From the NCBI RefSeq assembly GCF_003334405.1, contig NZ_QOWM01000011.1: a stretch of DNA of 64,000 nt; one strand, given 5' to 3'. Positions 35,281-42,203 of this stretch are shown here, piece by piece. Source of the DNA: Escherichia coli (GTDB lineage Bacteria; Pseudomonadota; Gammaproteobacteria; Enterobacterales; Enterobacteriaceae). Numbering within the stretch: position 1 is the stretch's first letter; every line of letters starts with the position of its first letter. The notes beneath the pieces were generated by a model. It was given only the letters and a program-made list of their open reading frames with translations, ran no database searches and was not told the DNA's origin. A program made the position numbers and the translations under genes.

Positions 35281-35437
35281 TTCCTTATGGTTGCAGATAA
35301 AACATATTATATTTTTATGTGTTCCATTTTTGCGTAAGCCTTATTTTATGCGTATTATGTCGCGTCAGAAAAGTATAAATAAACGAGCCTCGCAATGCGG
35401 CTAATATTCATTTAATGAATATTTAAGGATAAATTAT

Positions 35438-36145
35438 ATGGACATGGAGTCGCAAAAAATATTGTTTGCACTTTCCACTCCGATGGAAATACGCAATGAA
35501 TGCTGTTTACCTTCGCATTCATCACCCAAAATGTATTTAGGTACATGCTTTTTTGACCTTTCTTCCTCATGGGGAATTGATGACCGTGATGACCTGCTGC
35601 GCACAATTCACCGAATGATCGATAACGGTCATGCCGCTCGGTTGGCAGGGTTTTATCACCGCTGGTTTCGTTATTCGCCATGTGAATGGCGTGACTATCT
35701 TGCTGAACTAAATGAGCAAGGTCAGGCTTATGCGCAATTTGTCGCCAGCACCGCCGAATGCTGTGGCGAAGGGGGAATCAAAGCCTGGGATTATGTCCGG
35801 ATGGGTTTTTTAAGCCGAATGGGCGTACTTAATAACTGGTTGAGCGAAGAAGAAAGTCTATGGATCCAGTCGCGCATTCATCTACGGGCTCTACGTTATT
35901 ATAGTAACTGGCGGCAATACTTTGCCGGTTATACCTTTGGTCGGCAATATTGGCAGTCTCCCGAAGATGATCATCTGCCTTTATTACGCGAATTCTTAGC
36001 GCGTAAAGAATACGACGATTCCGGCAATGATATGTTTTATCAATTATTTGCCAGTGATGATGCGTATTACCCTACCTTGTCCTGGCAACCATTGGCTTAC
36101 TATTCTGCATGCCCGGAAACGCTTAAGGATATGAGCGACCTATGA
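35438..36145 (+). CDS. ybeR: DUF1266-family protein (paralog of ybeU)
   Basis: 235-aa ORF about 60% identical to the ybeU product by eye; stop overlaps the djlB start (ATGA). Confidence 0.85.
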
Positions 36146-37569
36146 AAAATTGCTGGAAGATCCTCGATATAGAGGAAACGACTGACGTCGATATTATCCG
36201 CCGCGCTTATCTGGCGCTGTTACCGTCCTTTCATCCAGAAACCGATCCGCAGGGTTTTAAACAACTTCGTCAGGCGTATGAGGAGGCGCTACGGATTGCG
36301 CAGTCGCCTGCTAAATCTGTTTGGCAACCAGAAGAATATGAGGTAGCAGAACATGAAATTCTGCTCGCCTTTCGTGCGTTACTTGCCTCTGATAGTGAAC
36401 GTTTTCTGCCCTCCGCCTGGCAGCGATTCATTCAGCAATTAAATTATTGCTCGATGGAGGAGATTGATGAATTACGCTGGTCGCTGTGCACAATCGCCAT
36501 GAACACTGCCCATTTATCCTTCGAGTGCGTGGTGTTATTAGCAGAAAGATTGCGGTGGTTACAGGAGGAAAATACCGGGGAAATAGACGAAGAAGAACTG
36601 GAATCCTTTTTATATGCCATTGCGAAGGGGAATGTTTTTAACTTCCAGACCATTCTGCATCTGCCCGTTGCCGTGCAAAATGACACCATCGATTTTTACC
36701 AAATGTTCGCTCGGATTTGGTCATCGCATCCACAATGGCTGACATTGTATTTAGCGCAACATCGCGCAGTGATTATCCCCGATGATGCAAAACTGCACAG
36801 AAATTTACTCCGCTGGTATAGCGCAGGTCGCCTGGATATCCCCGAACTTCTGGATTACGCCCAGTCATGGCGGGAAACTGAACCTGATAATGAAGATGCG
36901 CCTTATTATGAATACGCGCAACGCGTCTATTGTGGAGAAGGCGAAAGCCTGTTGGCAGAACTTTGTGACTACTGGCGCGAGTATCCCTCCACCCAGGCGG
37001 ATGCTTTAATGTTGCAATGGTGCCGTCAGCATCGGGTCGATTATTACCCATTACTGGTGATGATGATTGAAGCGCGTGATCTGGTTAACGATCAGGGAAA
37101 ACCGCTACTTTATGTCCCCGGCGACAGCGCCCGTACGCGTTTTCATTTATACGAAATACTCAGCGATGAAAAACTCTCTGCGCTGGGGCGTTCACTGGTC
37201 GAGATGGTTTTGCACAAAGGACGTAAGCCGCGGATCTCACTCACGCGTGATACAGAACATACCTTATGGCCATTATATCTAGTTGCCAAACAATTAGTGC
37301 AGGCCTGCCAACCTACAGAAGAATCATTAATGCCGATTGTGAGCCGCCTTGATGCAGAAAATCGTTGTCCACTGGAAGCATTAATTATTCGTCGATTATT
37401 AATTCAGGCGGCGAATTTTACCGAGAAGCAAACTGTTGAACCGGAGCCGCAACCGCAGCCAATGCCCGTTGACGATGGTGGGCCAGGCTGTCTGGGCATC
37501 ATTAAAATTATTTTCTATATTTTTATCTTTGCTGGTTTGATAGGGAAAATACTCCATCTGTTCGGGTGA
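36142..37569 (+). CDS. djlB: J-domain-like protein with a C-terminal transmembrane tail anchor (putative HscC co-chaperone)
   Basis: 475-aa ORF; N-terminal J-like helix pattern with HPE in place of HPD; C-terminal hydrophobic segment [20 protein letters not shown]. Confidence 0.85.
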
Positions 37570-37578
37570 CAGTCGACG

Positions 37579-38133
37579 TTAATGTGCGGGAAGCCCGGCA
37601 AGTAATCTTTCCGCATTTTTGTAATGTTGTTTGGCGGCCAGTTTTAACCATTTTTGAGATTCATAATGGTTAACATTAATACCTGAGCCATTTCTGTAGA
37701 TCAAACCTAAAGTATATTGAGCATGAGCATACCCTTGTTCAGCTGCTTCCTTATACCAGAGAATTGCTTTACGGGTGTCGGGTTTGACCCCCAGACCTTT
37801 GAGGTAGATCCACCCCAGTTTACTTTGCGCGCGTGGATTTTCCTGTTCCGCTGATTGCTCATACCAGTATCTCGCCTGTGTATAATCCAGTGGTTTACCG
37901 TCGCTACCATGAAGATAAAATTCTCCAAGGCGATATTGCGACGTTGAGTGACCATGAATCGCGGAAAGCTCCGTGGCTGCCGTGGTGAATGGAAGACTGC
38001 CCGGTGAGCTTAAATAATCAAAGGCATAATTCACCATGGCTTTATCACGCAACGTCGTTTTCTTGGGTTGGCTAATACAGGTAATTGCTGCAACTATAAA
38101 AATTGCGAATATATACATTAATTTTTTATTCAT
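37579..38133 (-). CDS. ybeT: Sel1-like repeat protein with an N-terminal signal peptide or anchor
   Basis: 184-aa ORF; N-terminal [19 protein letters not shown] followed by three Sel1-type repeats. Confidence 0.85.
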
Positions 38134-38234
38134 GTGTGAATGCTTCGATTTTCTTTTTATTTTGAAAGCGTCAAGTTTATACTCATCAATAATAAAAAAG
38201 TAGTCAGTTAATGCACTTAAGGGATTATTAACAA

Positions 38235-38942
38235 ATGAATAAGGAAGAACAATATCTTCTTTTTGCGCTTTCTGCGCCCATGGAAATACTTAATCAGGGT
38301 TGCAAACCCGCGCATGACTCGCCAAAAATGTATACTGGGATAAAAGAATTCGAGCTCTCATCATCCTGGGGAATAAATAATCGTGATGATTTAATTCAGA
38401 CTATTTATCAGATGACTGATGATGGTCATGCCAATGATTTAGCTGGCTTATATCTGACATGGCATCGCTCTTCCCCTGAAGAGTGGAAAGCATTAATTGC
38501 TGGTGGCTCGGAGAGAGGGTTGATTTATACCCAATTCGTTGCCCAAACCGCTATGTGCTGTGGGGAAGGGGGAATCAAAGCCTGGGATTATGTTCGAATG
38601 GGGTTTCTGTCACGGGTCGGTGTGCTCAACAAGTGGCTGACGGAAGAAGAGAGTTTATGGCTGCAATCGCGCGTCTATGTACGAGCTCACCATTACTATC
38701 ACAGCTGGATGCACTATTTTTCCGCCTATTCGTTAGGACGTCTCTACTGGCAATCTTCTCAGTGCGAAGACAACACTTCGCTACGCGAGGCGCTAACCCT
38801 GTACAAATACGATAGCGCCGGGAGTCGTATGTTCGAAGAGCTGGCAGCGGGAAGCGATCGTTTCTATGCCACGCTTCCCTGGCAGCCATTAACTGTCCAG
38901 TCTGAATGCCCGGTAACGCTTAAGGATGTGAGCGACCTATGA
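38235..38942 (+). CDS. ybeU: DUF1266-family protein (paralog of ybeR)
   Basis: 235-aa ORF; stop overlaps the djlC start (ATGA). Confidence 0.85.
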
Positions 38943-40390
38943 AAACATGTTGGCAAATCCTCGAAATTGAAAGCACGACGCAAATAGACATTATCCGCCA
39001 GGCTTATCTTGCTCGCTTACCGTTGTGTCATCCCGAAACCGATCCGCAAGGGTTTAAAGCATTACGCCAGGCCTATGAAGAGGCCCTGCGACTGGCGGTA
39101 AATCCTGTCGAGGAAGCAGATGATGAAGAAAAAGATGCTGCCGCTGAACATGAAATACTACGTGCATTCAGGACATTACTGGATTCAGAAAGTGATCGTT
39201 TTCAGCCTTCCGCCTGGCAGAAATTTATTCAGCAATTAAATACCTGGAACATGGAGGATGTCGATCAATTACGCTGGCCGCTGTGTGCAATCGCCATAGA
39301 AGCGCGATATCTTTCATTAAATTGTGCTTCTTTGCTGGCAGAGCGTTTGAACTGGCATTCATTTAATGACAGCGAAGGAATGGATGAGGAAGAAAGGGAG
39401 GCTTTTCTTGAGGCCATTCAGGCTGGTGATTGTTTCGATTTCCTTAGCCTTCTGGAATATCCCATTGCGTTGCAGAACCAGACTGTTGAGTATTACTTCG
39501 CGCTGGAACGTTGCTGCCGTTACCATCCTGACTATGTCACTGCGTTTTTGGCGATGGAAGGTCCGTGGTTAATTCCTGATGATGCAAAGTTACATCGCAA
39601 ACTGTTGCGCTGGTACAGCTCGGTGCAAACAGGTATGGCGGAACTCATTCCTGTCGCTCAACAGTGGCAAACGGAAGAACCAGAAAGCGAAGATGCCCGG
39701 TATTACTTGTGTGCACAACGTTTGTACTGCGGCGAGGGGGAAAGCCTGCTTGCCGATCTCTGCGCGTACTGGGAAAGTTACCCATCTACACAAGCTGATA
39801 ATTTGTTGTTGCAGTGGAGCAAGCGTCATTGCCCGGATTATTTCGCGTTATTAGTGATGGTTATCGAAGCGCGGAGCATGGTAGATGCGCAAGGTCAACC
39901 GCTGAAATATGTTCCTGGTGAGAGCGCCCGGACGCGGCTGTTATGGGCGGAGATTTTACATAGCGGAAAATTATCGCCGTTAGGTCAATCGTTTATTGAG
40001 TCGTTATTCTTCAAGCGCAAAGCATGGGCGTGGTGGAAATCGAGAGTCGGTAGCGAGACAGAGCAAGATTCACCGTTCCTGGATTTGTATCGGGTAGCGG
40101 AACAGGTAGTACTTGAAGCGTTTCCGAAACAAGAGATGCTGGCCCGTCTTAATACAAGGCTGGAAGGCGGAGATGCTCATCCATTAGAGGCCATTGTCAC
40201 CCGGATGCTTTTGACGAAAGTGAAACTCGAGCCGGAGGATGAAGATGTCGATGAGCCAACACCTGAAAATCATGAAGAAAAAAATGATGAGGGTGAAAAA
40301 CCACAGAGCATTACCAGCATTATCAAAATCAGTTTAACGGTGCTGGTGATAGGTTATGCTCTCGGCAAAATCGCGATGTTGTTTAGCTGA
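38939..40390 (+). CDS. djlC: J-domain-like protein with a C-terminal transmembrane tail anchor (putative HscC co-chaperone)
   Basis: 483-aa ORF paralogous to djlB; HPE motif; C-terminal hydrophobic segment [21 protein letters not shown]. Confidence 0.85.
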
Positions 40391-40410
40391 CGATGTGTTT
40401 TTTGCGCCGA

Positions 40411-40442
40411 TGCCGGATGCAGCGTTTACGCCGCATCCGGCA
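40411..40442. repeat. REP-like palindrome between convergent djlC and hscC
   Basis: tgccggatgcagcgtttacgccgcatccggca resembles the REP consensus (GCCGGATGCGGCG...). Confidence 0.45.
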
Positions 40443-40449
40443 GCCGTGT

Positions 40450-42120
40450 TTATGGGATCTCAATGGCTAAATAATCGCTCGCCCGCCGCCGAACTTCATC
40501 CACGCGGGCCATATCGTTTGACTGCAACGCCGCATCAAAATCGGTGATCACCCGGCCGATCTCTTCTCGCTCGTCACCCAGCGCCCGCGCCCACAACTCT
40601 TCCAGTTTGGCTTTAAAGGTGCGATTGATGAGCATATCGCGCGGATAAATTTTCAATGCGGATAACCGCGTCCGACTCTCTTCAATCTGCTGCGCGCTCA
40701 ATGTTACCGGGCTGTGGTTAATCACTCTGGACTTAACGCTGCCGTCTTCCAGAAGCACGTCAACTTCAAGCAACCCGTTGATATCATAACTAAAGCGAAT
40801 ATCAATCGACTGATAAGCCCCGGTTTTCTTCAACGGCACATCGAAGGATTCCACCAGAATGTTGTTTTTAACTTTGTGGTTTTCTCCCTGATAGACGTTA
40901 ACCGTAATTGAATCCTGTTCCGGGTGCATGGTTGAATAAGTTTCTACACGCGACACGGGCACAGTGGTGTTTCGTTCAATAATCGGCGAGAAAATGCCGG
41001 AAACGCCCTGGCGGTTAACTTCAACGCCCAACGAGTAAGGGCAAATATCAGTGAGGATTACCTCTTCAATATCTTCACTGCGTAAGCGGCAGGCGGCCTG
41101 GATTGCTGCGCCCAGCGCGACAATGGTGCTCGGATCGTAACTTTGATACGGTAATTTGCCAAACAGACGCACGGCGATTCGCTGCACCAGCGGCATTTGT
41201 GACGCGCCGCCAACCAGCACCAGACTGTCGATTTGACTCGGCTTCAGACGCGCATCGCGCAACGCCTGTTCAATCGGCACTCGCAAGCGATTGAGCAGCG
41301 GCAACCACAAATCTTCCAGTTCGTTCTCGTAAAATTCGCATTCCCGCGTTTCTTCCTGATACTGCCAGCGAATGTGCAATGGCGATTGATTGCTACATTT
41401 TGCCGCTTCCACACAGGCGTACAAGGCTGCCAGTTCACTCTCGTTAAGCGTGGTCCTGGCGACATCCGCGCGTTTTAAAACCTCATCGACCAGCATATGG
41501 GTAAAATCTTCGCCACCAAGAAAGTTGTCGCCAGCGGAGGCGTGAACTTCAATCACCGGCGTGGCGTACTCAAGCACCGTAACGTCAAACGTGCCGCCAC
41601 CGAGATCAAACACCAGCGAACGGGTATTTTGTTGGGTATGCAGGCCATACGCCATCGCAGCTGCTGTGGGTTCATTAATTAAGCGTACCGCATTTAACCC
41701 GGCTAACTCCGCTGCTAAACGGGTATGCTTGCGTTGTTCATCGCTGAAATAAGCCGGAACGGAGATCACCACATCTTTAATCGGACGTTGCAGAAATTCT
41801 TCGGCATCTTCTTTTAATGAGCGTAATACCAAAGAGGACAGTTCTGGCGCGTTAAATGTGTCGCTGCCTAACCGCCAGTTGGTATTACTGCCCATTGCAC
41901 GTTTAAATAACGCTGCCGTTTTATCCGGATGCGAAGTACGCCGTGATACAGCCGGTTTTCCGACTAAAATATGATTATTTTCATCCATGCTAATTATGGA
42001 TGGTGTTAAATATTCACCGAACTTATTTGGAATTAATTGCGCGGCACCGTCTTTCCAGACGGCAATTAAACTATTGGTAGTACCGAGATCGATACCAATG
42101 GCGAGTTCTGCATTATCCAT
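40450..42120 (-). CDS. hscC: Hsp70-family chaperone HscC (Hsc62)
   Basis: 556-aa ORF with Hsp70 signatures IDLGTTNS and DLGGGTFD; shorter than DnaK. Confidence 0.9.
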   Translation of the reverse strand: MDNAELAIGIDLGTTNSLIAVWKDGAAQLIPNKFGEYLTPSIISMDENNHILVGKPAVSRRTSHPDKTAALFKRAMGSNTNWRLGSDTFNAPELSSLVLRSLKEDAEEFLQRPIKDVVISVPAYFSDEQRKHTRLAAELAGLNAVRLINEPTAAAMAYGLHTQQNTRSLVFDLGGGTFDVTVLEYATPVIEVHASAGDNFLGGEDFTHMLVDEVLKRADVARTTLNESELAALYACVEAAKCSNQSPLHIRWQYQEETRECEFYENELEDLWLPLLNRLRVPIEQALRDARLKPSQIDSLVLVGGASQMPLVQRIAVRLFGKLPYQSYDPSTIVALGAAIQAACRLRSEDIEEVILTDICPYSLGVEVNRQGVSGIFSPIIERNTTVPVSRVETYSTMHPEQDSITVNVYQGENHKVKNNILVESFDVPLKKTGAYQSIDIRFSYDINGLLEVDVLLEDGSVKSRVINHSPVTLSAQQIEESRTRLSALKIYPRDMLINRTFKAKLEELWARALGDEREEIGRVITDFDAALQSNDMARVDEVRRRASDYLAIEIP

Positions 42121-42203
42121 TGCATTTATATCTTGAAAGAAAAAGAGATAAACAGATTAAGACCACCCAGGTAACGCGTGGTGATCTTAATCAATGACGT
42201 GTG

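Follow-up and report, generated by a model that had tools for sequence, protein, structure and literature searches.

The His-Pro-Glu loop of the J-proteins DjlB and DjlC of Escherichia coli and its relatives in an HscC-linked J-domain family

In Escherichia coli, two J-proteins, DjlB and DjlC, are encoded beside the gene of the specialised Hsp70 HscC, within the ybeQ-ybeR-djlB-ybeT-ybeU-djlC / hscC locus. This locus lies in the window, that is, the whole stretch of 64,000 nucleotides that was analysed, and the region is 100% identical to several annotated complete E. coli genomes. The genes and features that are relevant to the discussion below are the following, in order of position:

35438-36145, plus strand: ybeR (DUF1266), whose stop codon overlaps the start of djlB (ATGA, 36142-36145); open reading frame and annotation.
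36142-37569, plus strand: djlB (ybeS), coding sequence of 475 amino acids; open reading frame, annotation in identical E. coli genomes, and homologues with Pfam PF27158 (DjlB_C_2nd).
36142-36306, plus strand: divergent J-domain of DjlB, approximately residues 1-55 (helix I, helix II, loop, helix III); Pfam DnaJ over residues 4-47 (E=0.0017) and family profile against J-domains of the PDB.
36232-36240, plus strand: His31-Pro32-Glu33 of DjlB (cat cca gaa), aligned to H33-P34-D35 of DnaJ; translation, alignment and profile.
37489-37557, plus strand: C-terminal hydrophobic stretch of DjlB, a putative tail anchor with approximate limits; read from the sequence.
38235-38942, plus strand: ybeU (DUF1266), whose stop codon overlaps the start of djlC (ATGA, 38939-38942); open reading frame and annotation.
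38939-40390, plus strand: djlC (ybeV), coding sequence of 483 amino acids; open reading frame, annotated as co-chaperone DjlC.
38939-39103, plus strand: divergent J-domain of DjlC, approximately residues 1-55; Pfam DnaJ over residues 4-47, AlphaFold2 model and Foldseek.
39029-39037, plus strand: His31-Pro32-Glu33 of DjlC; translation and alignment.
40313-40378, plus strand: C-terminal hydrophobic stretch of DjlC, a putative tail anchor with approximate limits; read from the sequence, with membrane insertion reported.
40450-42120, minus strand: hscC (ybeW), a specialised Hsp70 of 556 amino acids, convergent with djlC; open reading frame, annotation, and alignment to DnaK and HscA.
41098-41100, minus strand: Gln341 of HscC, equivalent to DnaK Q378, the other residue with which DnaJ D35 makes contact; alignment, with the contact taken from the literature.
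41683-41685, minus strand: Arg146 of HscC, equivalent to DnaK R167, the Hsp70 arginine touched by the J-domain Asp; alignment, with the role of R167 taken from the literature.

DjlB and DjlC share 50% identity over their full length, and the segment 34297-40390 consists of two tandem copies of one three-gene module: first ybeQ (minus strand)/ybeR/djlB, then ybeT (minus strand)/ybeU/djlC. YbeT gives weak matches to Sel1/TPR-like repeat models. The two ATGA overlaps between stop and start codons (36142-36145 and 38939-38942) suggest that each DUF1266 gene is translationally coupled to the J-protein gene that follows it. On the other side of djlC, hscC converges upon it across a gap of 60 bp; its product remains well under the NCBIfam cut-offs for both DnaK (385 against 648 bits) and HscA (379 against 709 bits), and a scan of NCBIfam revealed no dedicated model for HscC, DjlB, DjlC or YbeU. 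When 5426 complete E. coli genomes are compared with the segment that carries djlB, djlC and hscC (35400-42200), 4433 show a match; since at least 80% of it is covered in just 3664 of these, the locus varies, or has lost part of its length, in an appreciable minority of strains.

With respect to the architecture of the proteins themselves, the J-domain stands at the N-terminus and is followed by PF27158, as indicated by precomputed Pfam assignments on cluster representatives P0001 (96% identical to DjlC), P0008 (100% over residues 1-357) and P0045, the last of which carries a J-domain one residue different from that of DjlB. PF27158 also occurs in distant relatives. At the other end, a hydrophobic stretch is visible by eye in both sequences; DjlB and DjlC have been described as tail-anchored in a review, in which the membrane insertion of DjlC is attributed to Peschke 2018.

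The initial annotation of this region had proposed that the N-termini of both paralogs resemble J-domains in which the His-Pro-Asp (HPD) tripeptide reads His-Pro-Glu (HPE). Both statements are borne out. The triads occupy exactly codons 36232-36240 and 39029-39037, within the translated segments SFHPETDP (36226-36249, DjlB) and LCHPETDP (39023-39046, DjlC), and profile comparison, Pfam, AlphaFold2 and Foldseek all point to a genuine though divergent J-domain. Full-length DjlB and DjlC match the Pfam DnaJ model (PF00226) weakly, with E values of 0.0017 and 0.036, respectively, over model positions 2-51 of 63; the isolated DjlC domain matches at E=6.6e-4, and isolated N-terminal domains of the family do so at E<=1e-3 in 54 of 54 cases, the best reaching 1.5e-10. 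A profile built from 54 diverse family N-termini recognizes solved J-domains, including DNAJA1 (E=2.3e-8) and the E. coli DnaJ chain 5NRO_B (E=2.2e-7), in an alignment that places the PE of the family on the PD of HPD. In the AlphaFold2 model of the DjlC J-domain (pLDDT 82), helices span residues 4-8, 16-26 and 36-54, the last two being joined by the loop that holds HPE, and helix IV has no confident presence. When this model was submitted to Foldseek, the best matches were all J-domains, with TM scores of 0.6-0.75 (5NRO chain B: TM 0.65, rmsd 2.0 A, 56 columns). The helix II-loop-helix III hairpin that characterizes J-domains is thus present in the DjlC model and in its structural matches, and the invariant His-Pro-Asp is His-Pro-Glu in both DjlB and DjlC. 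Because the profile, the isolated-domain Pfam matches, the AlphaFold2 model and Foldseek agree, it is confirmed that HPE takes the place of HPD in the loop of a true J-domain and is no chance match.

Two apparent HPD matches were encountered among protein fragments, and both could be traced to an unrelated internal tripeptide (RYHPDYV, DjlC residues 195-197, 39521-39529) that is not the J loop. This internal His-Pro-Asp sits in the middle domain of DjlC and is the source of spurious HPD in N-terminally truncated database fragments.

The presence of HPE in these proteins is itself established in the literature. Malinverni et al. 2023 (PNAS) reported 2,921 HPE J-domains, representing approximately 1% of all, and named DjlB and DjlC as examples; the parts of that article covered here mention neither NPE, RPD and KPE relatives nor, in the passages searched, the adjacency of HscC. 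A 2026 review considers HPE to be the sole tolerated replacement of HPD and ties it to HscC, while a 2021 review presents HscC as having co-evolved with specialised J-proteins and describes a loop deletion close to the J-domain site. DjlC stimulates HscC, which DnaJ, CbpA and HscB fail to do (Kluck 2002, via reviews), and in another paper the J-domain of DjlC was unable to substitute for that of DnaJ. Mutation of HPD from H to Q or from D to N led to loss of function in all systems tested. The HPE of DjlB and DjlC is consequently correct, both it and its HscC-linked reading are already published, and HPE as such is a textbook-level point about HscC in E. coli. Neither a frequent replacement of the His nor a family-wide absence of HPD was found described in the literature searched, and these two features, as they appear from the sequences, would be the only elements of specialist interest.

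How far does the Glu extend beyond E. coli? An alignment of DjlB and DjlC orthologs, suggested in the initial annotation as a check on the conservation of the residue, shows HPE to be fixed, with no alternation between HPD and HPE: the triad is found at residues 31-33 in 111 of the 111 homologues with an intact N-terminus among the best 120 database clusters, which cover Escherichia, Salmonella, Citrobacter and Enterobacter. A full HMMER search, run against 1.8 billion representatives, added more distant relatives of 450-1200 amino acids. Among the 158 distinct J-domains compared, 146 carry HPE, seven NPE, three RPD, and one each KPE and PPE, Glu being the third residue in 155; HPD occurs in none.

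Species-representative genomes were also scanned with a degenerate DNA pattern for P-x-x-[DN]-P-x-G-[FY]-x-x-L-R-x-A-[YF]-E, in which triad positions 1 and 3 were left free. This design was directed against ascertainment bias, and the counts that it yielded describe a sample, the matches listed, and not a total. All 122 matches listed lie in the same J-like context, and their triads are NPE (69), HPE (28), RPD (12), KPE (4), SPE (2), KPD (2) and five singletons, one of which, APD (L034), is a frameshifted RPD gene; among these 122, canonical HPD is absent. Many of the matches come from metagenome-assembled genomes, and isolates are included as well (Blautia parvula, Acetatifactor muris, Pseudomonas species, Aeromonas salmonicida and Paenibacillus). 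The gene of Blautia parvula NBRC 113351 (L059) is of the NPE type. Glu is present in 105 of the 122, encoded by GAG in 67 cases and by GAA in 38, and the use of both codons argues for selection on the amino acid. In most of the relatives among these matches the histidine is replaced by Asn, Arg, Lys or Ser: Asn occupies position 1 in the majority of Clostridia and in part of the Alphaproteobacteria, and a further subgroup is defined by Arg or Lys, in which case Asp usually stands at position 3. The family as a whole spans Proteobacteria, Bacillota, Myxococcota and Verrucomicrobia.

The first and third residues of the triad appear to be coupled in these sequences. His or Asn at the first position is accompanied by Glu at the third in 97 of 97 matches listed, and Asp, which the family does employ in RPD and KPD, follows Arg or Lys in 14 of 18 matches listed versus 2 of 104 otherwise (Fisher p=4e-13, with kinship ignored). 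In a neighbour-joining tree of the partner Hsp70s, which is crude, the triad states are interleaved, and this suggests that several independent switches may have taken place. The best-conserved segments of the whole protein include the loop and the helix III motif, and as read from the alignments the extended signature of the family is x-P-E-x-D-P-x-G-F-x-x-L-R-x-A-Y-E. By the same comparisons, Glu is a fixed trait of the family and no recent peculiarity of E. coli.

At three distant loci obtained from protein matches, of the HPE, NPE and RPD types, the J-protein adjoins an Hsp70 of 563-566 amino acids. Among the matches listed from the scan, all HPE and NPE genes flanked by 1.2 kb or more on both sides have an Hsp70 within approximately 0-200 bp, and 66 of 70 judgeable loci show adjacency to an HscC-type Hsp70 of about 550-580 amino acids. 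These neighbours match HscC far better than DnaK or HscA, with examples of 440-620 bits versus approximately 300-340. Some RPD and KPD family members also adjoin HscC-type Hsp70s; in Pseudomonas abietaniphila (L025), an RPD gene has the Hsp70 gene directly upstream. The only informative loci without a neighbouring Hsp70, among the matches listed, are four Pseudomonas RPD genes. These genes, at L019 (Pseudomonas sputi), L021 (Pseudomonas cedrina), L087 (Pseudomonas sp. Fl4BN1) and L095, comprise about 540-650 codons and have no Hsp70 within 4-7 kb; they may be orphan paralogues working in trans. Pseudomonas sputi possesses, separately, an HPE gene with an adjacent hscC (L020). The possibility that the same operons encode a second, canonical J-protein was considered and rejected, as phmmer searches with the DnaJ J-domain against open reading frames of at least 60 amino acids in approximately 120 loci recovered family members alone, with no HPD.

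The organization of these loci varies around the theme seen in E. coli. The arrangement of a DUF1266 gene, a J-protein gene joined to it by a stop/start overlap, and a convergent hscC recurs in a metagenome-assembled genome (L003), and DUF1266 genes lie ahead of the HPE-type genes of Pseudomonas and further Proteobacteria and also accompany the RPD gene of L007. In Clostridia, the operon consists of the J-protein gene followed by hscC on the same strand, without DUF1266. Distant relatives, such as those of L003, L004, L007 and many scan loci, reach 900-1200 amino acids and carry TPR repeats or DUF805 after the PF27158 region. Two loci, L022 (Corallococcus terminator, KPE/KPE) and L086 (a MAG of an unclassified bacterium, KPD/KPD), each contain two tandem J-like genes of the family, echoing the duplication of djlB and djlC in E. 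coli. Lastly, one minus-strand reading frame of about 1000 codons in L123 (1451-4385) apparently encodes both an HscC-type Hsp70 and a J-like domain with RPD, in what would be a natural Hsp70-J fusion.

The contacts made by the J-domain loop are known for the DnaJ-DnaK complex, in which DnaJ D35 bonds to R167 and Q378 and H33 to the L391 backbone, with P34 packed against P419; it has been proposed that D35 draws R167 away from its intramolecular contacts with D393 and D481. Alignment identifies R146, Q341, L356, D358 and P388 of HscC as the equivalents of DnaK R167, Q378, L391, D393 and P419. In 60 partner Hsp70s taken from the matches listed, R167 is kept in 59, and Q378, P419 and D393 in all 60, with the L391-type residue also kept, while the catalytic residues D8, K70, E171, D194, T199 and D201 are retained in 61 of 61 sequences (the partners listed and E. 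coli HscC). The exchange of DnaK D481 for Asn (N448 in HscC, and Asn in 60 of 60 partners) was considered as a compensation for the Glu and rejected, Asn being the majority state in ordinary Hsp70s that partner with HPD (Tomiczek 2020). Similarly, among the matches listed N170 is changed to Ser in 32 of 35 partners of NPE proteins and is Asn in 12 of 14 partners of HPE proteins; this covariation was rejected as a phylogenetic effect, the NPE/S170 sequences forming approximately one clade and counter-examples existing in both directions (S170 with HPE or RPD in L076, L104 and L007; N170 with NPE in L009, L016 and L038). No change that tracks the Glu of the J-domain was found in the 60 partner Hsp70s from the matches listed.

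These comparisons bear upon two further suggestions of the initial annotation. Co-evolution with HscC holds at the level of the family, where the co-evolution of the J-domain with HscC-type Hsp70s is well supported by genomic linkage across phyla, but nothing in these comparisons shows the Asp-to-Glu change itself to be the co-evolved feature. The notion that this change insulates DjlB and DjlC from DnaK finds no support, R167 and Q378, with which D35 makes contact, being unchanged in HscC (R146 and Q341). Other parts of the interface do differ. The net charge of residues 16-30, counted by hand, is approximately +1 in DjlB and DjlC versus +4 in the equivalent stretch of DnaJ, with K26 and R27 of DnaJ replaced in DjlB and DjlC by Leu and by Ala/Leu/Arg, respectively, and the mean net charge of helix II over HPE-type family members is +2.5. 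On the Hsp70 side, the acidic loop 208-211 of DnaK, which includes the DnaJ-contacting D211, is absent from HscC and from all partner Hsp70s in the matches listed. Likelier determinants of specificity than the Glu would be a helix II of much lower basicity and the missing 208-211 loop. In the two-step model of Tomiczek 2020, variable charged residues serve for recognition and the conserved acid for mechanics; if this model is considered together with the divergent recognition surface, insulation is more simply explained by the latter.

A comparison with well-described chaperone pairs helps to situate DjlC and HscC. As in the E. coli DnaJ-DnaK complex (5NRO), DjlC displays the helix II-loop-helix III hairpin with HP(D/E) in register, and Y25, F47 and K48 of DnaJ are kept as Y23, F39 and K40; HscC, like DnaK, keeps the equivalents of R167, Q378, L391 and P419. 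Unlike DnaJ, however, DjlB and DjlC carry Glu in place of Asp35, are approximately seven residues shorter between the loop and helix III, and display neither a confident helix IV nor a G/F region. HscC in turn differs from DnaK in lacking the 208-211 loop (D211) and in having S444 in place of D477, and published work indicates no cross-reaction between the two systems. The HscB-HscA pair provides another parallel, in that both cases involve a specialised Hsp70 with an exclusive class C J-protein encoded in its neighbourhood, and HscA also lacks the 208-211 loop; unlike DjlB and DjlC, HscB retains canonical HPD (in the literature, the Asp of HPD being D50 in the yeast homologue Hsc20).

Deviation from HPD within a J-fold is also seen in type IV J-like proteins such as DNAJB13 (HPL) and Pam16 (DKE or DKS), which are presumed to be non-stimulating, and a degenerate domain of this kind could bind or scaffold HscC without loop-driven ATP hydrolysis. 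The weak Pfam matches of the E. coli proteins are in line with this reading, as is the replacement, in most relatives, of the canonically essential His by Asn, Arg, Lys or Ser. Nevertheless, DjlC has been reported, in a review, to stimulate the ATPase of HscC, the loop and helix III motif belong to the most conserved parts of the protein and have not decayed, and the partner Hsp70s retain all of their catalytic residues, so that a scaffolding role of this sort is very improbable; on current evidence, DjlB and DjlC are not members of type IV. A different possibility is that specificity is switched by the Asp-to-Glu exchange itself, with a Glu side chain whose greater length suits the interdomain cleft of HscC and not that of DnaK. 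This would agree with the functional exclusivity of the DjlC-HscC pair in the literature, with the fixation of Glu beside His or Asn in all 97 matches listed and beside His in all 111 close homologues, and with the use of both Glu codons in the absence of HPD among the matches listed. It sits poorly with the identity of the direct Asp35 contacts, R167 and Q378, in HscC and its relatives, with the occurrence of D481N as the majority state in Hsp70s that use ordinary HPD, with the many other differences at the interface (the charge of helix II, the 208-211 deletion), and with the RPD and KPD members that likewise adjoin HscC-type Hsp70s; the switch is unlikely as an explanation. If HPE were instead a neutral, conservative substitution, fixed once in the ancestor of the family and inherited without adaptive meaning, changes from GAR to GAY should have generated HPD or NPD across divergent lineages, and neither is seen in the 97 matches listed with His or Asn at position 1; the near confinement of Asp to triads that begin with Arg or Lys (14 of 18 against 2 of 104 of the matches listed, p=4e-13 with kinship ignored) is equally difficult to reconcile with neutrality. 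The chemical likeness of Asp and Glu, the unchanged contact residues of the Hsp70 and the treatment of HPE as a tolerated replacement in the 2026 review lend this reading some weight, and it is best regarded as rather doubtful.

The most satisfactory account, and one that is probably right, is that DjlB and DjlC belong to an old family of membrane-anchored J-proteins dedicated to HscC, in which Glu does the job of Asp35 and exclusivity arises mainly through the recognition surface. It brings together sequence, conservation, fold and genomic linkage, all observed here, with ATPase stimulation and exclusivity as known from the literature. Against it stands the consideration that, were Asp and Glu equivalent, HPD should turn up now and then, as it lies one nucleotide away from HPE; among the matches listed, however, Asp never accompanies His or Asn at position 1, so that Glu is under selection of its own. 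The weak Pfam matches of the full-length E. coli proteins and the low confidence of helix IV also count against this account. Most likely, its carboxylate would take the role of DnaJ Asp35 by engaging R146 (equivalent to DnaK R167) and Gln341 of HscC, the contact between Glu33 of DjlC and Arg146 being deduced from the alignment with the DnaK complex. Such an engagement would disturb the contacts between nucleotide-binding domain, linker and substrate-binding domain, and thereby lead to ATP hydrolysis; the stimulation of HscC by DjlC is reportedly about 8-fold. Exclusivity towards HscC, or insulation from DnaK, would be derived mainly from the weakly basic helix II, the shortened segment formed by the loop and helix III, and an HscC devoid of 208-211, and probably not from the additional methylene of Glu alone.

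A broader proposition can be put forward tentatively: J-domains that serve HscC may depart from the HPD rule family-wide, with Glu as the standard residue, a dispensable His, and operon linkage to catalytically intact HscC-type Hsp70s. HPD has been regarded as the single invariant and mechanistically essential element of all J-domains, and an HPD-free family pattern would matter to the chaperone field, pending biochemical confirmation. If the NPE and RPD domains are active, HPE would no longer be the sole tolerated replacement, and HscC-type Hsp70s would be triggered by loop chemistry that DnaK-type proteins reject. A widespread family without HPD, and often without the His, that remains locked to an intact Hsp70 would represent a natural experiment on the requirements of the J-domain loop, and could offer a route to engineered orthogonal Hsp70/J-protein pairs.
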